Sequence record: PZ402300.1
DNA from: a phage
Direction: 5' to 3' (one strand)
Length of the DNA stretch: 64,000 nt
The notes under the pieces were generated by a model. That model saw nothing but the letters and a program-made list of their open reading frames with translations. It searched no databases and had not been told where the DNA came from. The translations under genes and the position numbers were made by a program. Shown one piece after another: positions 4,139 to 64,000 of the stretch (positions are counted from its first letter, which is position 1; each line of letters starts with the position of its first letter).

Positions 4139-5359
4139 ATGACTACGGAAGCTGCAACCACAGCTTCCGACATTCTCGCAATGTCGGATGATGAGATTCT
4201 GAATATGGAAGCCCCAGCTATTATTGCTGAGGAAGACACTTCCACTCAGAACAACCCAGAAACCAACGGCGTACAGACTCCTGATGAAGAAGTTGACCCC
4301 TCTGCTGTTGAAGACCTACCAACCAAAGAAACTTCCCCTGAAACTGAACCAGTTGAAGATGATTCAGCAAATTCTTTAACTTCTGATAAAGTTGATGATA
4401 AAGTTGTTGACACAGAAGTTGATAGTAACGGCAAGCCGATTACTAAAGCTGAACCTTCTACTACTGAACCAGGCCAGGAACAGAAAGAAGAAGGCAAACA
4501 GTCTGAAGGTCTGCCTGCTGACTTCAACTATAAGGAAGGTTATGAGAAGTTGATGGCTCCTTTTAAAGCTAACGGCAAGATGATTACTCCCCGTTCTCCG
4601 GAGGAGGCCATTAGCCTGATGCAGATGGGTGCTAACTATACTCGTAAGATGCAAGAACTTCAGCCGTACCGTAAGGTAATGCTGATGCTACAGAACAACG
4701 GTTTAATGGATGAGGAAAAACTTTCTTTCCTGATTGACCTGGATAAGAAGAATCCTGAAGCCATTAAAAAGTTGTTGAAAGACTCTGGTACAGATCCTCT
4801 GGATTTTAATCCAGAAGAGGAAATTAATTACCAGGGTGGCAAACACCGTGTTACAGACACCGAAGCAGATTTTGCAACCGAAATTGACGACTTAAAGTCT
4901 ACTCAAGAAGGACAAGCTACATTAGGTGTTATTAGCTCGACATGGGATGCTGCCAGTAAAGATGCTCTTTATCATAATCGTGGCTTACTCCAGACTATTC
5001 ACGAACAGCGTGAGAATGGTATTTATGACACCATTGCTAACGAAGTGAATCGTCTCCAGATGTTAGGCCAGATTCCGGTAGGTACTCCATTTATTCAGGC
5101 TTATAACCACGTTGGTAACCTCCTTGCACAGCAGGGTGCATTTAACCAAGTGGCTAAGCCTGAACCGGTACAAGCAGTTAAACCAGCAGTTCAGCCGGTA
5201 GTGCGTGTAGCACGACCTAAGCAGACTCTGGCTAATAACGAGCAAGCTAAAGCAGCTTCCCTTAATCGGGCTGCTACACGTAAAGCTACACCTATTGTAA
5301 ACCCACTCGCTATGAGTGATGAAGATTTCGCTAAACTCCCAGTACCGGGTAGTCTTTAA
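4139..5359 (+). CDS. Hypothetical head-assembly protein with highly acidic low-complexity N-terminus (scaffold-like; N4 gp57 position)
   Basis: 406 aa; Asp/Glu/Pro/Thr-rich N-terminal third; immediately upstream of major capsid gene. Confidence 0.4.
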   Translation: MTTEAATTASDILAMSDDEILNMEAPAIIAEEDTSTQNNPETNGVQTPDEEVDPSAVEDLPTKETSPETEPVEDDSANSLTSDKVDDKVVDTEVDSNGKPITKAEPSTTEPGQEQKEEGKQSEGLPADFNYKEGYEKLMAPFKANGKMITPRSPEEAISLMQMGANYTRKMQELQPYRKVMLMLQNNGLMDEEKLSFLIDLDKKNPEAIKKLLKDSGTDPLDFNPEEEINYQGGKHRVTDTEADFATEIDDLKSTQEGQATLGVISSTWDAASKDALYHNRGLLQTIHEQRENGIYDTIANEVNRLQMLGQIPVGTPFIQAYNHVGNLLAQQGAFNQVAKPEPVQAVKPAVQPVVRVARPKQTLANNEQAKAASLNRAATRKATPIVNPLAMSDEDFAKLPVPGSL

Positions 5360-13314: not shown

Positions 13315-13375
13315 ACATTCACTTACTGTACAGTGAATCTTCTTATACGATATAAGTTTGAACAGGAATCATGCT

Positions 13376-16300
13376 ATGTCAACATTTGACCGTCTGGCAG
13401 GTTTCGCAGACAGCATCACTACTGCTAAGCAAGTCGATGTCTCTACTGCAACCTCTCGGAAACAAGCTGAACAAGGGCAAAGCCCTTTCCAACTAACCCC
13501 ACAGAACGCTTACCAATTACAGGCAGGTCGTGCTGGTGACTTAGGTGCTGGTGCATTTGACCCAGGTTCTATTCAGGCAGATTTTACTAATGCCTCCCCC
13601 CTTGAAATCGTAAACAAATATGGCAATGAGCAGGGAATGGACATTCTCAATGCTCGTGTCAATGCAGCTAATGCTGTTCGTCGTGATTTAACTAAGAGTC
13701 GTACATATGGTGAAGCACTTGGTGATACCCTTTTTGGTGTTGGTCTTGGTGTTGCTAATACCCTTGGGGGCATTGCTGCTCTTGGCACAGGTTTGGTCAA
13801 TGATAATGCCGGGGCATCCATTGCTTCCGGTCTTGACTGGTTAAACAAAGGTGTACACAACCTACAGTCTGATGCACTGAATGCTCGTCGTAATGTAGTA
13901 CAGAACCAGAACGTAATATCTGCACAGGAAAATGAGAAACTCTATAAGCAGGATGTTGCTAAAGGGGAAAGTGAACTCGTTGCTTCTCTGTCTCGCATTG
14001 GTCGTGATGCTTACGATTCCGTTGCTAACACTTTATCCAATGGTATGGCTGCTACAGATGGTCTGGCTGAGGGTGTTGGTTCTCTGTTTACAGGTGGTCC
14101 ATTAATTCGTGGTGTATCTGCACTTGGTAAAGTAATGGTAGGTGGGGATAAAGCTGTTAAGGGTATTACCTTAGCTGCTGAATTAGGTTCACGTCCTGCA
14201 CGTACTGCATTAGCTACTGGTCGTGTTGCTGCACCTGCTATGGCAATTGGTGGTATGGAAGCTGGTGGTGCATACCAACAGACTGCTAATGAAATTATGG
14301 AAATGCCATTCAGTGAACTGGCTGCTAAATCTTCTGTATACCAACAGCATATTAAAGACGGTCTGCCTCCTGAAGAAGCTCGTCGTCAGACTGCATCTGA
14401 AACGGGTATTACTGCTGCTGGTTTAACTGCTCCGATTGCTGCTCTTACTGGCCCATTAGTATCCAAGTTTGAACTTAACCCACTTAAGGTAGGTTCACTG
14501 GCTGGTGCTGGTTCTAATATGCTACGTGAGACTGTAGAAGAAGGTATTCAGTCTGGTACAAGTCAGTTTGCACAGAACAAGGCAATTCAGGGTAATGTAG
14601 ATGCTAATCGTGACCTGCTTAAAGGTGTTGGTGAACAAACCGGGCTTGGTGCATTGTATGGCTTTGGCTCTGCTGGAGTTGCTCAAGCTCCTGGTGCAAC
14701 TGTTAAGGCTGCTGGTGCTGCCGTTGGTCCTGCTGTACGTACTACCCTGGCTGGTGCTTCTCTGGCTGGTAAGGCACTAGCAAAAGTAGCTTCTCCTATT
14801 ACTAACATCCTGGTTCAACGTGGAGAAGAAGTAGCTAAACGTAACGAACAAGCATCCCCTGTATCAGACGCTACAGTTAATGCTGCTGCACAAGAAGCTA
14901 CTGCTCAGGCAGAACAAGCGCAAGCAACTGTACAGGAAGCAGTAGATGCAATGGACATTTCTCCAGAAGAGAAAGCTGCTGCTACCCAATATGCTGCTGA
15001 CTTAACTCAGGTAATGAAGTTTGACCCAGTAGAACTGGAACAAGCTAGTCCTGCAATCCGTGAAGCTGTTTCTGGTTCCACTAACCGTGTTGAAGCTATT
15101 CAGAAGATGGCTGACTTGGTTAATACTGCTGAAGACCCTAATGTTCAAATGGAAGCTGCAATCCAGATGTATGACAACATCATGTCTATGGATAGCTTCA
15201 TTAACCGTGACCCGGGTGCATTAGCTAATCTGGAACAAGGTTCTCCTGCTGCTAATATTGTTGACCAGTTCTCTGGTCTGATGGCTAACGTTCAGAATAC
15301 ACCAAAGGTACTTCGTGCATTCCGTGCTATTCATTCTATGATTCAGGAACAGGCTGAAGCAGGTAAACTGAAAGCTACTGAGGAAGCCAATCAAGCTCAG
15401 GCAAACAATATTGCTATGGCTGCTGATATGTCTCCAGAAGTACTGGATGCAGATTCAGTGAACATGGTTCTGAAACATGCAAGTGAAGGTAAGATTACAC
15501 TGGGGAATCGTCAGCGTGCTGCCCTGCAATCTGCTGCTGCTCTATTGCAAGGAGCACGAGAATTTGACGCTAAAGCAGAAGAACTAGGCTTACGTCCTCA
15601 AGACATTGTTAGTAAACAGATTAAAACCGACGAATCTCGTTCTAATGAAGGCCAGTACTCTGCGTTGCAACATGCTAAACGCATTCGTTCTGCGTACAAC
15701 TCTGGTAACTTCGATTTGGCTTCCGCTTATCTCGACGACTTTATGAAGTTCGCCCAGCACATGCAGAATAAGGTCGGAGCGTTGAATGAGCATCTGATTT
15801 CTGGGAATGCGGATAAAAATAAGTCTGTTCATTATCAGGCTCTTACTCCCTCGCGTGAATGGGTACGTAGTCGTACTGGCCTCGGTGTCAATCCGTATGA
15901 TACCAAGTCGGTTAAGTTTGCCCAGCAAGTAGGACTGGAGGCCAAGACCGTAGCTGATATTGCTAACGCACTTGCTACGGCTTACCCGGAGCTTAATGTT
16001 TCTCATGTGAAAGTTACCCCATTGGATTCACGTCTGGACAAACCTGCTGCCCAGGTAGTTAAAGAGTTCCGTCAGGGCAATCTTGATGCTGCTCAATCCC
16101 AACAGACCAATGAACCAGTGAATCAGGTTGATGAAACTCCTGTTACGAAACAGGAACCAGTTACCCCTACTGTACAGACTAAACCCTCTGTTAGTGAAGC
16201 TGTTAAAACAGAATCCACTATTAAAGAGTCTAAACCACAGTCTGTAAAAGAACCTGAGAACCAGTCTGAAAAACAGGATGTTACCCTCACTAATGAGGAT

Positions 16301-19300
16301 ACCACTCAGGAAGTGGCTGAAACTAAAACAGAAATGGAAACAGTGTTCCCTGTCTATAACAATGAAAAGACACCGAACCAGTTCATTAAAGCATTTTCTC
16401 TACCAGAAGAACCTAAGTCTCGTACCATTGGTTCTGAGTCTCCTCTGACCGATGTTAAGAAAGCACTGTCTTCTGCTGCTCGTTTCGAAGCATTCACTCA
16501 AAAAGAAAATAACGCCCTCACAAGTGATGTGATTAAGCGTTATCAGGACTTATTTGATTTTGGTGAAATTCTGAAGACTACCCTGTCTGACCGTCTGGCT
16601 AAGTTCCTTGCTAATAAGAATGTTGGTAAACGTTTTGCAGAAGGTACTGAGGCTAACCGTTGGGTAGGTGGTAAGTTACTTAACATCGTAGAAAAAGATG
16701 GTGACACCTTTAAGTTCAATGACCAGTTGTTAGAGACTGCTGTACTTGCTGGTCTGCAATGGCGATTAACTGCTACACAGAATGCTGCTGTTAAAGACAT
16801 GAAAGACGTAGCTGCTATTACTGGTGTAGAAGCATCTCTGCTACCAGAAGGCATTTTGGCTGATTTCGAAAATGCTCAGACATTGGTTGAAGCTACTAAC
16901 TCACTGGCTCAAAAGATTGAATCTTATTGGGGACTTAACCGTAATGCTGATGCACCACTTGGTTATACCAAGGGTATCCCAGTGGCAATGGCTACAGAGA
17001 TTCTATCTTCTTTTATTGAGATGGGTGTAGTTAAAGAGTCTATGCTGGATGTGTCTGAGATTGACCCAGAATCTAAAAAGACTGTTGGTCTGTATACCAT
17101 TGATAAGTTAGAGGATAATGATGCCATTAATAATTTCCCTACTGCTATTGAGGAAGCTGTCCTTGTAGAACCAGCAGAGAAACTGTACCTAGGTGATGAT
17201 ATTCCTTCCGTGGCTCCTACTCAGTTACGTAACCCTGCTGTCCGTAATACTCCAGAACAGAAAGCTGCTCTTAAAGCAGAACAGGCTACTGAGTTCTTTG
17301 TACATACTCCAATGGTTCAGTTCTATGAGGCGTTAGGTAAAGACCGTATCCTCGAACTGATGGGTGCAGGTACTCTGGATAAAGATTTACTTAATAAGAA
17401 CCATGCTAAATCTTTGGAAGGCAAGAATCGTTCAGTAGAGGATTCTTATAACCAATTGTTCTCTGTTATTGAACAGGTAAGAGCACAGAGTGAAGACATT
17501 TCCACTGTGCCTATTCACTATGCATACAATATGACTCGTGTTGGTCGTATGCAGATGTTAGGTAAATATACCCCCCAATCAGCTAAGCTGGTTCGTGAGG
17601 CTATTTTACCTACCAAAGCTACTCTGGATTTATCGAACCAGAACAACGAAGATTTCTCTGGCTTCCAGCTTGGACTGGCTCAGGCATTAGGTATCAAAGT
17701 TCATAAAATGACTCGTGAAACTATGTCAGAGGAACTTACCAAAGCTCTGGAAGGTAAGCTGAAACCTGCTGTAGATATGATGGTTGAGTTTGATAAGTCT
17801 GGATACTTACCTACTGATGCAGTGGATATCTTAAGAACATCTCTGGGTAATGATAAATCCTTTGTGGCTCTCATGGCTCTTATGGAATATGCCCGTTACC
17901 TTAACAGTGATGACCGTGCCAACTTTAATACTCCTTTGTACGTTGAAGCCGATGGGGTAACCAACGGACCAATCAACGCAATGGTATTAATGACTGGTGG
18001 TAAGTTCACTCCAAACTGGATTAAGAATACTGCCAAAGGTGGTTTGTTCTTTGGTAAAGCTGGTAAGACTATGAATGAGCATCATACGCAGGATGACAGT
18101 GTTGACCTGTATGAAGCATCTACAAATAGTCTGCAATTCTATCTGAATGAATTACGTAATACTTACAGTAAAAATATTCCAGTTATAAACCAGATGGACC
18201 ATCTCCAGAAGTTAATGAACTTGTTCATTAAAGACTTCAATCTTAAGGAAGACGGTACTCTGGACCTGAAGCGTGGTATCGCTAAAAACCCACTTACCAT
18301 TACCATCTATGGTTCTGGTGCTCGTGGTATTGCAGGCAAGATGGTAAGTGCAATTACTGATACCATCTATGAACGCTTAAGCGACGTTCTGAAAGCCCGT
18401 GCTGTTGACCCTAACATTCCCCCAGCTATGGCGATGTTTGGTAAGGAGGCTGCGTCTGAGGCTGATGCTCAGGCTATGCTGGATACCTTCCTTACTTCTA
18501 TGAAAGCGTTGACTGGGAATATTCCAGCTAAGCGTAAAGGTAAGTTATTCATTAAGGAAGTAGACGGTGTTCTGACTGGTAAGTTAGACCCCCAGGAGTT
18601 TACTGTATCTGGTAATGCTCTTAAGAACTTACAAGAGAATATGCTGCATTTCTTTGTTGAGCCAATGAGGCAAAGTATCCGGTTCACTGTTGGTGAGGGG
18701 TTGATGCACTCTACTGAGAATTTGCAGAAAGCTACCCAGATTCAATCTCTGGTATTGCAGGATATGTTCCAACAAGCAGTACAGGCTAAGCTGGCAGAAA
18801 AAGAAAAAGACCCAACATGGAAGAAGGGTGATTTCTTAACGCAGAAAGAATTGAATGAAATCCAGAATAGCTTAGCTCCACTGGCTCCAATGATTAAGAC
18901 TGGTTCCCAGACTTTCTACATTGCTGGAAGTGAGAATACTGACGTTGCTAACCAAGTATTGGCTACCAACTTAGATGACCGTATGCGTGTGCCAATGAGT
19001 ATCTATGCTCCTTCGCAGGCAGGTGTTGCAGGTATTCCCTTTATGACCATCGGTACTGGTGATGGCATGATGATGCAGACCCTTTCTACTATGAAAGGTG
19101 CTCCGAAGAATACCCTGAAAATCTTTGATGGTATGAACATTGGTATCAATGACATTACTGATGCAAGTCGTAAAGCTAATGAGGCTGTATATACTTCCTG
19201 GCAGGGTAATCCTATTAAGAATGTATATGAGTCTTTCTCTAAGTTTGTTAAGAATGTTGATTTAAATAAGCTGTCCGATTCAGCAATAGATGCTATTGCA

Positions 19301-22300
19301 AAGTCTGCTTTAGACTTTGAGCAACGTGCTCATATTGCCAGGGTAGATGGTGATAGAGATTATAAAATTTCTATGATTAGAGATTCTGGTATTGCATTAA
19401 TTGAGCGTAACCTACGTAACATTGCTTTGGGTGTAGATATTCGTCACAAGGTAATGGACCAGGTACAGGTCACTGTTGACCAGATGGCTGCTGTTGGTGC
19501 TCCTTATGTGAACAACGGTAAAATCTCTCTGGAAGGTCTGACTATAGACCAGCAAGTAGCCAAGCTGAACGAACTGTTTGATGCTGAATTAAACAAGCGT
19601 CGTGATGCAGTACGTGCTGCTAAAGCGGAACCAACGAAGGCAGAACCAGTGAAGGAAGTGCCGGTGAAAGTTGTACCAGCTATGGAGAAGGTAGGTCGTG
19701 TACTGAAGTCTGGTGTACGCCTGTTGTCTAATGCTGCTATTACTAAGCTGGCTAAAGAGATGTCTCCTGAACAGCAAGCAGTATTGAAAGAAATACAGAA
19801 ATCTCTTGCTGCTAAAGACTACAAGGTTGTTTACGGTACACCTTCTCAACTGGATGCCTACGCTATTGAGAAGAACATTACTCGCCCAGCACCAGAAGAT
19901 ATTGAAGCTGCTGAAGCAGGTAATGCATATGGCTGGACTAACTTTGAAGATAAGACCATCTACTTAGTTACCCCTTCCTTAGAGACTTTGGTTCATGAAT
20001 TAGTACATGCTTCTACTTTTGAATCTGTACTGGCTCACTACGAAGGCACCCCTAATGAAGCTGTCCAGAACATTGAAGACCTGATGAACCAGTTCCGTGC
20101 TTTGGATGTTAAGGATGAATCCCCGGTAGTACGTGAAGCATATGCCGATGCACTGAATACCATTAATGGTCATTTGTCTAATGGCTTTATTGAACCAGCA
20201 ATGGCTAAAGCTGCTGCACTGAATGAGTACATGGCTTGGGGTTTAACCAACCGTGAACTTATTAGTAAGCAGAAGAAAACCACTGCACTTAAGACTATGG
20301 TTCAGGCTGTATATGAAGCAATCAAACGTTTGGTATTCGGACGTAAGAAAGCTCCAGCTAATGCAGATGATATGTTCTCGGGCTTATTGTTTAACTCTGC
20401 TGTAGTTATGCGTGGGCAGGCTCCTACTGCTGCTGTAGCCAAAGACACTACCCTGTTCCATAACAAAGCATATGGTGACAATACTCGTCTGGAAGAGTTA
20501 GGGAAAACCTTCGATAAGTTGATTACTGACTACATTGGTTCAGAACCAGTACAGCAAGTAATTCGTAAAGGTAAGTTTTCCGATGCAGTAGTGAATGCAA
20601 CTAAAGTAACTCGTGATGTTCAGGCTCATGGCTTCACCATGAATATGCAGGAACAGCGTCTCTTTACTAACATTGTTGCTGCTCTCGCTACCGAGGCTGC
20701 TATTAACCCTGCTGCTCTGGCTCGTGCACAGGAATACTACACGCATGTTACTAAGAATCTGACTGTTGAAGCATTTATGTCTGACCCTGATAGTACTAAC
20801 CCTGCTGACCGTTACTATGCACAGCAGAAGTTCGATACCATCATGGGTGCTAACAACATTGAGTTTGATGCACAAGGTCGTTCTTCCTTACTGCCTACCT
20901 TTGTTGGTCTGGCAATGGTAAGCGAAGAGGTACGTAAGGTACTGGCTTATATTCCTGTTATGAAAGCAGATAAGAAATCAGGCAATACCGTTGATGCAAT
21001 GCTGACTAATATCGGTACTGCTGCAATGGCTAGTTTGAATGCTCGTGTAGCAGGCGATACTAAAGCCACTAACGTACAAGAAGGTATGGATGCACTGGCT
21101 CAGACAATCATGCAGACCAGCCTTAATGCAGAGTCCTTCTATGATTCCGTTGCTACTCCTACCGGTAATGCTATTGACCGTGCTAACCAGTATCTGGTGG
21201 ATTCTATTGATGTACTGTCTACCCGTGCTTTAGAAGGTGCTCGTGAAGTTGCAGCTAATACCAAGAACCCATTGGTTAAAGGTGCTGCTCATGCTGCACA
21301 ACTGGTAGCTGCTATTGCTACAGAGAAGAATGGTTCAATCGTAGCTGAGGGTGTTATGGCTGCAATGAACCAAGGTAAAGTATGGCAACCTTTCCATGAC
21401 CTGGTTAATGACATAATCGGTCGTACTAAGAGCAATGCTTCTGTATACGATTTGATTAAAGCAGTACGTGCACAGGTACAAGCTGACCGTCAACAGTTCC
21501 GTGAACACCTACCTACCACTATCGCATCCAAATTCAGCCGTAAGCTGACTAATGATGAGTGGAAAGCAATGCATACCGGTATGGGTAAAACTGACTTAGC
21601 TGTTCTGCGTGACACTATGTCTCTGGCTGAAATCCGTGACCTACTGACTGACCAAAAGATTGTTGACCGTGAGGTTAATAAACTGGAAGCAGATTTGCAG
21701 AAACAAGCAGGACGTAACTGGCCTCTGATTAATCGTAAATCTAAGCAACTGGCTCAGTACATGATTAATGGTACAGTCGGTAATAACCTGCTGCGTAATG
21801 CTACTGCAATTTCACGTTTGCTGGGTGAACGTAAGACTACACGTTCTGTTGTAGATGTAGCTCAGCTGGATAAACTGATTACTTTATATGCACTGGAAGC
21901 AATGAATAAGACTGACCGTGAGATGTTATCTTCACTGGCTCAGACAGAAATTGAAGGTATGGACTTTGCTACATCTTACCTGGTTGGCCAGCGTAAAGAT
22001 GAAATGGCTAAAGTCAAGTCTGATAGTCGTGCAACTCTGAACCAGTACAAAGGGTATATTCCTGGTGAGACTAAACAGGGTGTTAACCTGATTGTTGCTG
22101 AAGATAGTCAGTTTGTTGATTTGATTGAGAAATCCTATGTACGTCTGGGGACTTATCAAGGTAGCTCTGCTAATCGTGGTCCAGCACGTAGTTACTACTT
22201 TGCACCAGTACAGGCACAGGCTCCATTCTCACAGGGTATCCTACAGAACGTTCGCAATACTGCTGGTGGTGTAGACCTCGGCACAGGCTTTACGATGGGA

Positions 22301-60391: not shown

Positions 60392-60520
60392 TTTGTACTC
60401 TCCAGATTTATGTGATTTACGGGTGAACTCGTCGGTGAGAACACCCAAACAAAGGGATAAAAGTTCAATGATTAGTGGATGCATTTACATCATCCATAAG
60501 ACGCGGAGCGTCGTTGCCTT

Positions 60521-60746: not shown

Positions 60747-61001
60747 TTAATTGGTTGAAATGTATCCGTAAGCTGTGGAACAGCTTAGCTCTTCCTTATC
60801 TGGCTCTCCTTCACAGGATTCCCACTGCCATACATAACCAGTTAGTGGAAGGGTTTCTCCCTCCACAAAGTAGGGTTCACCATCTTTAATTTTTAAATCG
60901 GAATCTCTTGTAAGAGTGATTTCTCCATCCATCAATTCTCCTACGATAATTGTTCCAACAGGGACATCAGCAGAGCCTTCGATACAACGGAATTTGGTCA
61001 T
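60747..61001 (-). CDS. Hypothetical small acidic protein
   Basis: 84 aa ORF. Confidence 0.4.
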   Translation of the reverse strand: MTKFRCIEGSADVPVGTIIVGELMDGEITLTRDSDLKIKDGEPYFVEGETLPLTGYVWQWESCEGEPDKEELSCSTAYGYISTN

Positions 61002-61091: not shown

Positions 61092-61415
61092 TTAGTCTTT
61101 AGTCAGGATGTCAATTACTTTGGAATATTCTGCGTTATAGATACGAGCGTTCTCTGAATCCTTGCAGAATTCCTCAATACTTTTCTTACGCAGAGTCTCA
61201 GTCATAGCTGTTTCCTCTGCCAGTTTATTAACAAAGGTATGCATTTCTAATTTAGTACGAATGGCTTGTTTCTCTGCCATCGTACTTACATATGAATTAA
61301 GCATACCTACTGCTTTAGTTGCTGTACTGAATGTATCTGCAACAGTAGTAGCAGCTGAGTTAACAGTACCAAGTAAAGTTCCTGCGGTCATACGTACAGT
61401 AGCTTGAGTAGTCAT
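61092..61415 (-). CDS. Hypothetical small protein (Thr/Ala-rich N-terminus)
   Basis: Track ORF 61092..61604; start reset to ATG 61415 (MTTQATV) with GGAG RBS; upstream part of track ORF spans the G11 tract and is likely non-coding. Confidence 0.4.
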   Translation of the reverse strand: MTTQATVRMTAGTLLGTVNSAATTVADTFSTATKAVGMLNSYVSTMAEKQAIRTKLEMHTFVNKLAEETAMTETLRKKSIEEFCKDSENARIYNAEYSKVIDILTKD

Positions 61416-61497
61416 GATGATAGCTCCAATAGTTGATGATAGGACGACATGTCCATAACATGCGGAGCATGTGTAACGTGTAAGGTGGGGTAGGGTA

Positions 61498-61565
61498 GTG
61501 GCTACACCGTCAACATACCGGGGGGGGGGGCTAGCTGAGTGTAAGGGTGTAGCCCCAGCCACACC
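61498..61565. repeat. Imperfect inverted repeat enclosing an 11-G homopolymer (61520-61530) in a G-rich intergenic region
   Basis: GCTACACC (61501-61508) pairs with GGTGTAGC (61546-61553); upstream GGTGGGGTAGGGTAGTGG. Confidence 0.45.
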
Positions 61566-61597
61566 ACTGTAGTCATACCTACATAATGAATATTTAG

Positions 61598-61625
61598 TAT
61601 GCAAAAAATTATGAGGTAACTATCT
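61598..61625. promoter_or_regulatory. Repeat copy 1: TATGCAAAAAATTATGAGGTAACTATCT
   Basis: Near-duplicate of motif at 61665; contains CTATCT element shared with the 61018 inverted repeat. Confidence 0.4.
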
Positions 61626-61664
61626 GCATAAGGTTGTAGCCATACATAACTATGCTACTTTTCA

Positions 61665-61688
61665 TATGCAAAAATATGATAGCTATCT
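61665..61688. promoter_or_regulatory. Repeat copy 2: TATGCAAAAATATGATAGCTATCT
   Basis: Direct repeat of 61598 motif ~67 bp away. Confidence 0.4.
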
Positions 61689-62014
61689 TACTTATAAGCA
61701 GTTAAATAGGAGGGAGCATATACCAGGTGAGGGGTTCGTAGTTCACTCGTAATACCAAAAGTAAGAGTGTACTTATCTGTATTCACATGCCATGGTGAGT
61801 ACATGGAAGAAGGCCATGGTAGTTCCTTTCCTGGTTCCTGTAAGAATACTCTTACTTCTATTCCCAGTAACAAGGCTAACCCTTTTACTTCATGAAATGT
61901 TTGTTCATCCGGTACTAGTATAATAGTAGTAAGTCTATCTGGTATAAGGTTTTGTAAGGTTGTATGGATGGTGGGATTAGGCCCACCAGCATAACCTATC
62001 TTAGTAAGTTTCAT
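61688..62014 (-). CDS. Paralog-family small early protein A
   Basis: 108 aa; motif TIILVPDEQTFHEVKGLALLLG shared with five neighbouring ORFs. Confidence 0.5.
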   Translation of the reverse strand: MKLTKIGYAGGPNPTIHTTLQNLIPDRLTTIILVPDEQTFHEVKGLALLLGIEVRVFLQEPGKELPWPSSMYSPWHVNTDKYTLTFGITSELRTPHLVYAPSYLTAYK

Positions 62015-62348
62015 GGGATATAATCCTTACTCTCTTAAAATCTTTATTAGGTCTGCTATCTATAGTAAGTCCAACAAACCCTTCTTCTATCCTTGGTTCA
62101 AAGAACAAGAATGCAGATTCACCAGCAGGTATCTTTATGGATTCTCCTGGGTTGAGAATGGTTAACTTAGCTGGACTATTGAGAAGAAGGATGGAACCAC
62201 GGGTACTATCTGCTAACTCTCCTGATAGCATAACCATATGACAGTCTTGCGGTAGTAACCATTCAATAGCTTTAGTAATGTTCTCGGAGTAAACAGAGAC
62301 TTCATCCTTATACTGATGGAGATACAGTACTCTATTCATAAGGCACAC
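62001..62348 (-). CDS. Paralog-family small early protein B (divergent)
   Basis: 115 aa; MVMLSGELADSTRGSILLLN…LTILNPGE matches family pattern. Confidence 0.45.
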   Translation of the reverse strand: MCLMNRVLYLHQYKDEVSVYSENITKAIEWLLPQDCHMVMLSGELADSTRGSILLLNSPAKLTILNPGESIKIPAGESAFLFFEPRIEEGFVGLTIDSRPNKDFKRVRIISHETY

Positions 62349-62656
62349 TCGTCGCTAGATAAATATGAGGTAGAAGGATAGAGGGTAATAAGTCTACCAG
62401 TTAGAGTAGTAACTACCATAGGTTCACAAGAGGAGTAGATGTATACAACTACATTCTCTGGAGCTTCGATGGAAGTATCTATTTTAATAAAAGTAATAGG
62501 TACACCCAACATGAGGCAGGTTCCGATGAACTCATCCGCTTTTTCACATTGTTCATAGTACATTGTCATAGGCGTATTTATTCTCATCCAATGAGATTTA
62601 CCTACCCCCAGATTAAGGGGACTGGTACTACGATAACTCAAACCATAGAAGTGCAT
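62336..62656 (-). CDS. Paralog-family small early protein C (divergent)
   Basis: 106 aa; EQCEKADEFIGTCLMLG…IEAPE matches family pattern. Confidence 0.4.
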   Translation of the reverse strand: MHFYGLSYRSTSPLNLGVGKSHWMRINTPMTMYYEQCEKADEFIGTCLMLGVPITFIKIDTSIEAPENVVVYIYSSCEPMVVTTLTGRLITLYPSTSYLSSDECAL

Positions 62657-62659
62657 AGC

Positions 62660-62977
62660 TTACTTCCTTATGTAGAAGTAGCAGTATTCATCATTTACAT
62701 ACCTACTTTCCCATTGGTAGGCATCAGACACCAACATGTATGGAATAGGGTCACCTGCACTGTAGTTGGTATAAACAGAAGGAGGAATAATACATACAAC
62801 TTTACGGTCATTACCTGCTAAGAAGAGCTGACCTCTTACTTCATGGTAGTCCTCCAAGGTAGGAACCAGGATTACTTGCTGGGGATTGCTGTTCATGACT
62901 TCTTCTAAAGTGAAGTCAGTTGTGTACATAGACCCTACTTCTTCAGCATAGCTGGGGATGGTCATTATGAATTTCAT
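62660..62977 (-). CDS. Paralog-family small early protein D
   Basis: 105 aa; QQVILVPTLEDYHEVRGQLFLAGN. Confidence 0.5.
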   Translation of the reverse strand: MKFIMTIPSYAEEVGSMYTTDFTLEEVMNSNPQQVILVPTLEDYHEVRGQLFLAGNDRKVVCIIPPSVYTNYSAGDPIPYMLVSDAYQWESRYVNDEYCYFYIRK

Positions 62978-63338
62978 GATGGATTTTCCTTCCTTTAGGA
63001 ATAGGTCTGAAGTAAATGGAAAGTGTTTTATTAAAGACGTTATGGTCAGCTATCATTTCCCAGCCAGGTACTTTATAGAATCTGACTCCTGGGAATAATG
63101 TTTCGAAGTCTGCATACTCAGTAAGATCATACACAACTGGTTCAGTAAGTATACGTGTATTGATTTGCAGGTTACTTAAGAAAAATGAACCAACTATCTC
63201 GTGGGATTCTTCACAGTCTGGTAGGAAGACTACATGTTTAGATAGGAACTTACTTACCATCTCTGGTTCTCCAAGGTAGTAGGGTTCCTGCTTGCGTAGT
63301 ACACCGGTAATATCAATATCAAAAGCGTAGATGCTCAT
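62943..63338 (-). CDS. Paralog-family small early protein E
   Basis: 131 aa; HVVFLPDCEESHEIVGSFFLSN. Confidence 0.5.
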   Translation of the reverse strand: MSIYAFDIDITGVLRKQEPYYLGEPEMVSKFLSKHVVFLPDCEESHEIVGSFFLSNLQINTRILTEPVVYDLTEYADFETLFPGVRFYKVPGWEMIADHNVFNKTLSIYFRPIPKGRKIHHEIHNDHPQLC

Positions 63339-63352
63339 ATTTGCATACCTCC

Positions 63353-63389
63353 TGAAAAAGAAATGGGGTAGAGCCTCTCGACTCTACCC
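63353..63389 (-). terminator. Rho-independent terminator
   Basis: Minus strand GGGGUAGAG-UCGAGAGGC-UCUACCCC followed by AUUUCUUUUUC. Confidence 0.55.
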
Positions 63390-63538
63390 CTTACCGTTTT
63401 CAATCACGGGTCAGTTCATCACCCTAGATACATGTGTATCGTTAGCCTACTAGGTAGGAAAGGAGCCGGGCAACCCTGACTGTAGAAGTTATTAACTCTT
63501 TACGAGTACCGCCACTGTCTACTAGGCGACATGACTAA

Positions 63539-63829
63539 TCACATCGTCACCGTCATCCGAACACTGTCTTTGCTTCGCCTGACGGAGACACTATGAGGTA
63601 ATTTTGTGAAGAACACAAGAGAGGAAGGGCGTTTTTCTAAAGAGTAACTTTCTCTTGGTTCTAAGATCTTAATGCCCGGACGATTTTCTAAAAGCATCAT
63701 CCCAGCTAATTCATGGTAGGTGTCTTCATCATGTGTAATGATGATATCATCTGAAAGAATACCAGCCTTGGTGTGGTCTAGCTCCTTGTATTCATCTTTA
63801 GAGTCGTGGACTCTCATATAGATTCTCAA
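63539..63829 (-). CDS. Paralog-family small early protein F
   Basis: 96 aa; DDIIITHDEDTYHELAGMMLLENR. Confidence 0.45.
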   Translation of the reverse strand: MRIYMRVHDSKDEYKELDHTKAGILSDDIIITHDEDTYHELAGMMLLENRPGIKILEPRESYSLEKRPSSLVFFTKLPHSVSVRRSKDSVRMTVTM

Positions 63830-64000
63830 AGGTTACTCCTTTTGGGAATAGGGTCATCGGAACATTACATACTATACAGTATCATGAACTTTTTCTATAT
63901 CATGACTAAAGTGTAACTGTATGGTATCGTTTCTTCAAGGGGTATATCACCCCAAGAAAAGAATCTTCTTTAATAGACATAACTTTGTAGCGAGATAAGT

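Follow-up and report, generated by a model that had tools for sequence, protein, structure and literature searches.

Six tandem paralogous genes at the right genome end of a Gamaleyavirus phage form a fast-evolving family of N4-like phages

Introduction

Two questions are raised by the locus analyzed here: whether six small genes that follow one another on a phage genome are members of one family, and whether their place in the sequence record, beside the early genes, tells when they are expressed. The genes, named F, E, D, C, B, and A in the order of transcription, lie on the minus strand at positions 61688-63829 of a 64,000-nucleotide (nt) stretch of phage DNA from sequence record PZ402300.1; this whole stretch is referred to as the window. 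An original prediction, made from the letters alone, had described the genes as a tandem array of divergent paralogues in a phage early region, a setting that it considered typical of host-takeover or anti-defense genes. By following up this prediction, we placed all six genes in a single protein family specific to N4-like phages and located them at the physical genome end opposite to that of the early genes.

Results

Homology of the six array genes

All six predicted open reading frames (ORFs) were found consecutively on the minus strand, with lengths of 96-131 amino acids (aa).

63539-63829, minus strand: F, 96 aa, TTG start; homologue of N4 gp70 and G7C gp70; phrog_7213
62943-63338, minus strand: E, 131 aa; homologue of N4 gp71 and G7C gp71; phrog_9160
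62660-62977, minus strand: D, 105 aa; homologue of G7C gp71.1; phrog_11661; modeled with AlphaFold2
62336-62656, minus strand: C, 106 aa, divergent; homologue of G7C gp71.2; phrog_12099
62001-62339, minus strand: B, 112 aa from the ATG at 62339, divergent; phrog_12606
61688-62014, minus strand: A, 108 aa; final gene before the terminal repeat; phrog_16338

The TTG start of F lines up with the ATG of N4 gp70 and has AGGAG 6 nt before it. ORF B was originally listed as 62001-62348 (115 aa from a GTG), but its start is most likely the ATG at 62339, because the database homologues begin with MNRVLYL. The genes after F are closely packed: E and D overlap by 35 nt, D and C are 3 nt apart, the TGA stop of C overlaps the ATG of B (ATGA), and B and A overlap by 14 nt. 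The proteins are soluble, and their isoelectric points (pI) lie in the mildly acidic to neutral range, at 6.9, 5.6, 4.9, 4.4, 5.6, and 6.5 for A, B, C, D, E, and F, respectively; only D is markedly acidic.

The common ancestry of the six genes was then examined at the level of single sequences, of profiles, and of iterative searches. Pairwise phmmer comparison linked A with D (5e-6), A with F (1e-4), D with E (1e-4), and B with F (3e-4). For hhalign, one orthologue profile per array gene was built from related loci, and an empirical null was obtained from 180 comparisons of the six array profiles with 30 unrelated ORF families of the same loci. Profile comparison linked A-D (3e-8), A-F (1e-7), B-C (2e-6), D-E (9e-5), E-F (1e-4), and C-E (1e-3). 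Null scores averaged 10.6 and did not exceed 20.5, whereas array pairs reached 47.9; 11 of the 15 pairs scored above the null maximum, and each gene had at least two links above it, including the weakest member, C, which was linked to B (score, 39.1) and E (score, 25.3). Searching 685 six-frame ORFs from 23 related loci and the window, jackhmmer reached the same set from any of the six queries, with a union of 121 ORFs. All 121 fell within the array and on the array strand in every locus, and the searches thus had not drifted. By these profile and iterative comparisons, the six genes, B and C included, are one protein family. The tandem paralogy that had been predicted is therefore borne out, its similarity exceeds chance as the proposed alignment test had to establish, and B and C, rightly singled out as the most divergent, nevertheless belong to the family.

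The shared motif was quantified as weighted frequencies over 107 nonredundant family members and is given here in D numbering. It comprises I/V36, L37, P39 (46%), E/D42 (79%), H45 (69%; D in 15%), E46 (58%), G49 (98%), L52-L53, N/G55 (98%), and P65 (53%). The family core reads [IV]-L-V-P-x-x-[ED]-x-x-[HD]-E-x-x-G-x-x-L-L-x-[NG], and approximately 10 residues past it lies a hydrophobic strand with (E)-P at its end. The motif quoted in the original prediction was accurate by these frequencies.

Distribution among N4-like phages

The window carries, at 13358-23797 on the plus strand, a 3479-aa ORF of the size of the N4 virion RNA polymerase (vRNAP), and its final 4 kb are 84-93% identical to Gamaleyavirus phages (pSb-1, IME11, and G7C relatives). 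Judged from its closest records, which all come from this genus, the phage is a Gamaleyavirus, an N4-like podophage of the Schitoviridae; no identical record was found, and we consequently regard it as a new isolate of a known genus. The array sits between the gp69/terminase genes, of which gp69 is located just past the window end as seen in pSb-1, and the terminal repeat followed by gp1, and it is transcribed toward the repeat.

At this place, G7C is annotated with gp70, gp71, gp71.1, and gp71.2, the first two being noted as like N4 gp70 and gp71, and N4 itself carries gp70, gp71, and the 42-aa gp72. Clustering by blastp (E < 1e-8) joined F with N4 gp70, E with N4 gp71, D with G7C gp71.1, and C with G7C gp71.2, and left A and B without a counterpart in either phage. 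The homologues of F, E, D, and C share position and orientation with the array genes, as well as a terminator after the first gene, and by homology, position, and direction of transcription the array belongs to the right-end family of N4 gp70/gp71. The window phage differs from the two reference phages in having six members, compared with two in N4 and four in G7C.

Among 1.84 billion cluster representatives searched with a profile, only 18 matched at E ≤ 1e-3. Seventeen of them were proteins of 54-132 aa without domain fusions; the remaining one, a repetitive protein of 573 aa, looks spurious. The matches that could be traced shared one context, namely terminase, gp69, six to eight small genes, and then genes with the Pfam domains Phage_N4_Gp1 and Phage_N4_Gp2, and the order gp69, array, N4-gp1, N4-gp2 was repeated in distant metagenomic relatives, in a Klebsiella Kaypoctavirus phage, and in Achromobacter phage JWDelta, a member of a different subfamily (Rothmandenesvirinae). 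In the last two phages, sequence comparison placed family members at the right genome end; F, whose homologue reaches JWDelta, is the most widely kept member. In two Klebsiella phage records, OY979416 (L016) and OY978778 (L027), the annotation tables mismatch the sequence, for example by placing DNA primase and portal labels over the gp69/array region; as their feature names are unreliable, their DNA alone was used and the annotations were ignored.

Copy number in relatives, which the original prediction had proposed to look up, ranged from two to six recognized members per genome, with two in N4, four in G7C, and five to six in further relatives. The change in gene content is concentrated at the repeat-proximal end of the array, where B is duplicated in Mimir124 and IME11 and the order of A and B is swapped in relatives. 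Taken together, these data showed that the family is specific to N4-like phages (Schitoviridae) and arose through tandem duplication and divergence. In databases and searchable papers the six genes are not treated as one family, and they have already been deposited as hypothetical ORFs in many genomes.

Some relatives' arrays contain, inserted at their repeat-proximal end, an additional, unrelated ORF of 104 aa with an HEVNH motif (HExxH, metallopeptidase-like). It is carried by ECBP1, U1G, PhAPEC5, IME11, and some metagenomic relatives (4414-4728 in locus L017, 4685-4999 in L018, 3719-4045 in L021, and others), is assigned to phrog_1365, a family of unknown function, and had no Pfam match.

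Rate of evolution

Within Gamaleyavirus, the mean protein identity declines along the array from 83% for F to 61% for A, the fastest-evolving member, and the neighboring gp69 and TerL are 98-99% identical. The ratio of nonsynonymous to synonymous substitution rates (dN/dS) of the six families was 0.17-0.29, approximately 10-fold the 0.02 of gp69/TerL; values of this size indicate that the six families are real coding genes. The synonymous rate (dS) was also higher in the array genes than in the neighboring core genes, which fits an exchange with more distant alleles. The array thus combines paralogy, variable content, and fast yet purifying evolution, as is expected of a tandem accessory multigene family.

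Predicted fold and the conserved polar residues

An AlphaFold2 model of D, built with a 61-sequence family alignment, had a predicted local distance difference test score (pLDDT) of 86.9 and a predicted template modeling (TM) score of 0.78. The modeled protein is alpha/beta, with eight strands and two helices, and the family motif forms strand 3, the next loop, and the long helix 2. Foldseek found no match of this model in the PDB (best E, 0.8), and the family profile matched no PDB sequence. Among predicted viral structures (BFVD), the matches were confined to uncharacterized proteins of N4-like phages, namely PhAPEC7, PhAPEC5, OLB145, Klebsiella phage KP8, and N4-like phages of Achromobacter and Pseudomonas, with TM scores up to 0.76 at 12-22% identity. 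Entries with lengths fitting the A and gp71 families matched with TM scores of 0.69-0.76 at 14-22% identity, and KP8 and the Achromobacter and Pseudomonas phages each had several matching proteins. Because the BFVD models were built independently of our family alignment, they support a shared fold and suggest a family that extends further than sequence searches reveal. Each protein is predicted to be a small, soluble domain of alpha/beta type, built on a conserved core of strand, loop, and helix.

No known domain had been recognized in the original prediction, and this is upheld: Pfam and NCBIfam gave no hit for the six proteins, no Pfam hit recurred over the 61 family members, and PHROGs divides the six into separate families, all of unknown function. 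A Toprim-like reading, to which the motif had pointed, was not supported. Toprim domains have a conserved Glu after strand 1 and a DxD motif after strand 3; the family lacks the DxD, B, C, and D do not retain the conserved positions, and neither structure nor sequence comparison gave a significant match. Homology or fold similarity to known anti-defense families (DNA mimics, anti-CRISPRs, and nucleotide sponges) was likewise not found in Pfam, NCBIfam, annotated PHROGs, or the PDB, although no dedicated anti-defense library was searched, and the array proteins as a set lack the strongly acidic composition of DNA mimics of the Ocr/ArdA type.

These structural data bear on the possibility that the family is a small enzyme or a small-molecule- or metal-binding domain, such as a degenerate Toprim-like nuclease domain or a signaling-nucleotide sponge, in which what sets the paralogues apart would be their substrates and not the proteins that they bind. 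Polar residues do persist despite the divergence: E/D42, H/D45, and E46 share one face of the helix, and past the following strand an acidic residue precedes P65. Such residues are, however, not uniformly kept: nothing remains of the second acidic position in the D family (IIPPS), and B and C replace the histidine with aspartate and lose the proline. Together with the empty Foldseek and Pfam searches and the missing Toprim DxD, this leaves an enzymatic or ligand-binding family an unlikely explanation, albeit one with residues to point to.

Position of the array in the packaged genome

The array appears beside the early genes because the record is circularly permuted and contains one collapsed copy of the terminal repeat in mid-sequence.

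61157-61562, no strand assigned: direct terminal repeat, single collapsed copy; contains the physical ends of the genome together with vRNAP promoter P1 and the start or most of gp1
61452-61466, minus strand: vRNAP promoter upstream of gp1
60765-60779, minus strand: vRNAP promoter upstream of a 71-aa ORF
60493-60507, minus strand: vRNAP promoter upstream of gp2

The genome termini of IME11 have been mapped through read pile-ups, giving a direct terminal repeat of 401 bp (PMC3896407). One IME11 terminal sequence was placed at window position 61562, and the other was placed by eye at 61157, with 4 mismatches. The annotated direct terminal repeat of Mimir124 coincides with the stretch 61157-61562; in the linear G7C record, the terminal repeat comes directly after gp71.2 and is followed by the record end; and the records of several relatives begin or stop at approximately 61150-61170. 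The IME11 termini, the Mimir124 repeat, and the G7C record place the array at the right end of virion DNA, where it is the final coding sequence, with gp1 and the early genes at the opposite end, and between the two stand a 126-bp spacer and the terminal repeat that holds the physical genome end. The repeat (approximately 400 bp) also contains a run of 11 C on the minus strand near 61530, and N4 has the same run.

In N4, the leftmost part of the genome enters the cell first, the leftmost 10% holds all three vRNAP promoters, and full entry has to await production of the middle transcription machinery (PMC4496689). Middle transcription stays within the left half, the right half is read leftward at late times, and rightward transcripts from the right end are absent from the descriptions in that review (PMC4496689). 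A vRNAP promoter pattern, a TCC-loop hairpin followed by TTATGGA, was derived from N4 P1 and P2 and from P1 of the window phage. It identified the three promoters listed above, each with a TCC-loop hairpin and then TTATGGA or TTACGGA, in a layout that agrees with the one described for N4. All three lie to the left of the array, and a minus-strand scan found no vRNAP hairpin promoter in the array or upstream of it (61688-64000).

The assignment of the array to a phage early region, and of its members to early genes, was accordingly not supported. As an explanation, it would make the array products agents of immediate host takeover or anti-defense, for example anti-restriction, at the start of infection. 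Like the early genes of N4 (gp1, gp2, and others), the array genes are small, point in the same direction, and mostly have no known function, and on the circular or concatemeric map they adjoin the early genes, directly upstream of them; they also evolve fast and vary in copy number, as is typical of host-takeover genes, and N4 and Gamaleyavirus phages resist restriction systems by a mechanism that is unknown (PMC11990801). But the early genes are beyond the genome terminus, have hairpin promoters (TCC loop, TTATGGA), and are injected first (PMC4496689), whereas the array occupies the end that enters last and lacks such promoters, even though the motif cleanly finds the three expected at the left end. 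An anti-restriction protein encoded on the last-entering DNA could not shield the incoming genome. We therefore consider an early, immediate-takeover array quite improbable.

Expression signals

Candidate signals for transcription of the array were found before F and between F and E.

63939-63953, no strand assigned: hairpin GGGGT-N5-ACCCC, invariant, between the divergent genes gp69 and F
63910-63938, minus strand: sigma-70-like promoter candidate of F (TTGAAG, 17 nt, TACACT)
63339-63538, minus strand: structured noncoding F-E spacer of 200 nt, ending in a strong intrinsic terminator at 63390-63365

The gp69-F intergenic region shows striking conservation between N4 and the G7C-like phages. 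When the promoter candidate of F was aligned over 11 loci (N4, G7C-like phages, L021, and L022), the hexamers were conserved as TTGAAG/TTGCAG and TACACT/TAGACT, and the 17-nt spacer was fixed in length and variable in sequence. This retention of the hexamers over a varying spacer suggests a sigma-70 promoter. The GGGGT-N5-ACCCC hairpin adjoins the -35-like hexamer; its stems are invariant in N4, Gamaleyavirus, and metagenomic relatives, and only its loop varies. On the opposite strand, the same hairpin falls at the -35 place of a possible leftward late promoter of gp69 (-10, TTTAAT).

Directly after the stop codon of F, the F-E spacer forms a hairpin of CCGCC, an 11-nt loop, and GGCGG, followed by more small hairpins and then by the terminator. 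Blocks of its sequence are conserved from N4 to JWDelta, with an invariant AATAAC..C..CAG block, and RNAalifold predicted 30 pairs, 16 of them with compensatory changes, with a minimum free energy z-score of -2.6. Scans of the spacer and array region found no Rfam family and no tRNA. The spacer may be an attenuator, a structured 3′ untranslated region, or a small RNA. Because the start codon of E comes only about 25 nt after the terminator, access to E-A requires read-through or a promoter located before the terminator. N4 and JWDelta share this layout of first gene, terminator, and remaining genes. No repeated promoter motif was found in the window; the motif upstream of F occurs there only once, as does the AATAAC..CAG block of the spacer, and recurrence thus points to no promoter class for either.

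Elements at the terminal-repeat boundary

Between gene A and the terminal-repeat boundary lie two direct repeats.

61568-61607 and 61635-61674, no strand assigned: two 40-nt direct repeats, family D1, 70% identity, 67-nt spacing

On the plus strand they read TGTAG[T/C]CATAC...TATGCAAAAA; they could be a terminase signal, a replication signal, or a promoter. N4 carries a similar ATAATTTTTT element approximately 50 bp before its right genome end.

The T7 right-end promoter offers a comparison for another explanation, in which the unit acts in DNA metabolism at the end of the genome rather than in host interaction and aids replication initiation, duplication of the terminal repeat, or packaging, through rightward transcription over the concatemer junction, the F-E spacer, the 40-nt repeats, and perhaps the proteins. 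The array adjoins the gp69/terminase genes and ends 126 bp from a repeat boundary marked by direct repeats, terminator prediction gave nothing between A and the repeat, and the noncoding blocks are kept across subfamilies to an unusual degree even as the coding sequences diverge. Two to six copies, swaps, duplications, and 10 times the rate of TerL would nonetheless be unexpected for core replication or packaging proteins, no DNA-binding fold was detected, and the cis elements could act in this way without the proteins sharing the role. A function of the unit as a whole in DNA metabolism is, on this evidence, hardly probable either.

Finally, the idea that the ORFs are nonfunctional or decaying filler with a chance or compositional motif, to which their missing function and annotation and variable presence might have pointed, retains virtually no credence, since it is refuted by the selection and homology tests: dN/dS is low in every family, synteny is kept across genera and subfamilies, profile scores are far above the empirical null, and the fold prediction is confident.

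Discussion

The reading that we favor, with a probability of somewhat below one half (roughly 45%), is that the array encodes fast-evolving accessory host-interaction proteins made after complete entry of the genome. The array is a rightward transcription unit at the right genome end, between the divergent gp69/terminase genes and the right terminal repeat. F would most likely be read by the host sigma-70 RNA polymerase from the conserved weak promoter, and its transcript would pass through the conserved structured 200-nt RNA into the intrinsic terminator, with read-through giving the packed, partly overlapping E-D-C-B-A at a lower level and F being strongly expressed. As the array DNA enters the cell last, the proteins would appear after takeover, at middle or late times. 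They would be accessory factors of a dispensable type, and, in the least certain step, each may bind a different host or host-defense component via its variable C-terminal sheet, while the acidic/histidine site at the helix start may be a shared contact with a ligand, metal, or partner. Gain, loss, and swapping of genes at the repeat-proximal end would then fit the set to different hosts.

A role in host takeover or anti-defense, as originally predicted, is a reasonable guess, given that rapid evolution and copy-number change fit it; the last-entering position argues against immediate takeover or anti-restriction. Anti-defense is conceivable, but a role in protecting incoming DNA is unlikely.

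Several points weigh against the favored reading. Searchable literature holds no transcript or protein data on the array genes of any phage, nothing relevant on the function of N4 gp70/gp71 or on N4-like transcriptomes covering the region, and no relevant accessory-gene or essentiality screens that include N4-like phages; timing and polymerase thus rest on sequence inference. The promoter candidate of F agrees with the consensus at 8 of 12 positions, which is under the threshold of a generic scan, and the conservation of its stretch may instead be owed to a gp69 promoter on the other strand. The target-binding role is argued from the evolutionary pattern only, and the conserved polar residues (E, H/D, E, and the invariant G) could reflect a shared enzymatic or ligand-binding activity instead. 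The proteins are not uniformly acidic (pI 4.4-6.9), and they matched no known anti-defense family. The fold of B and C lacks independent confirmation: a separate AlphaFold model of C, made from B and C sequences only, reached a pLDDT of 48 and agreed with D in the central strand-helix-strand alone.

A more far-reaching version, which we regard as speculative and unlikely in full, is that an undescribed fold with an acidic/histidine ligand site has been amplified into a late-acting arsenal gated by a new structured RNA and terminator between gp70 and gp71. Equally speculative are the examples that such an arsenal might contain: sponges or modifiers directed against abortive-infection or signaling defenses, or against the host RNA polymerase at the late switch.

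The class I genes of T7 (0.3 to 0.7) and the pre-early genes of T5 are genome-end clusters that act on host physiology or defenses. Like the array, they are terminal clusters of small genes with rapid turnover and no homologues outside their phage group. They differ in lying at the first-entering end and in consisting of unrelated genes, whereas the array is a single amplified family at the last-entering end.

The result is incremental rather than surprising. It also carries a caution for genome scans, in that closeness to early genes in a circularly permuted record does not equal early expression. In N4-like phages, a large family with therapeutic use and a well-studied transcription program, the right-end genes had never been given a time class or a function. 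What is added here is that gp70, gp71, and their neighbors are one amplified, rapidly evolving family, with a predicted fold that has no match among solved structures, at the last-injected genome end, behind a conserved promoter candidate, a structured RNA, and a terminator. The array thereby offers a small, defined, and deletable target for studying how N4-like phages cope with host diversity.

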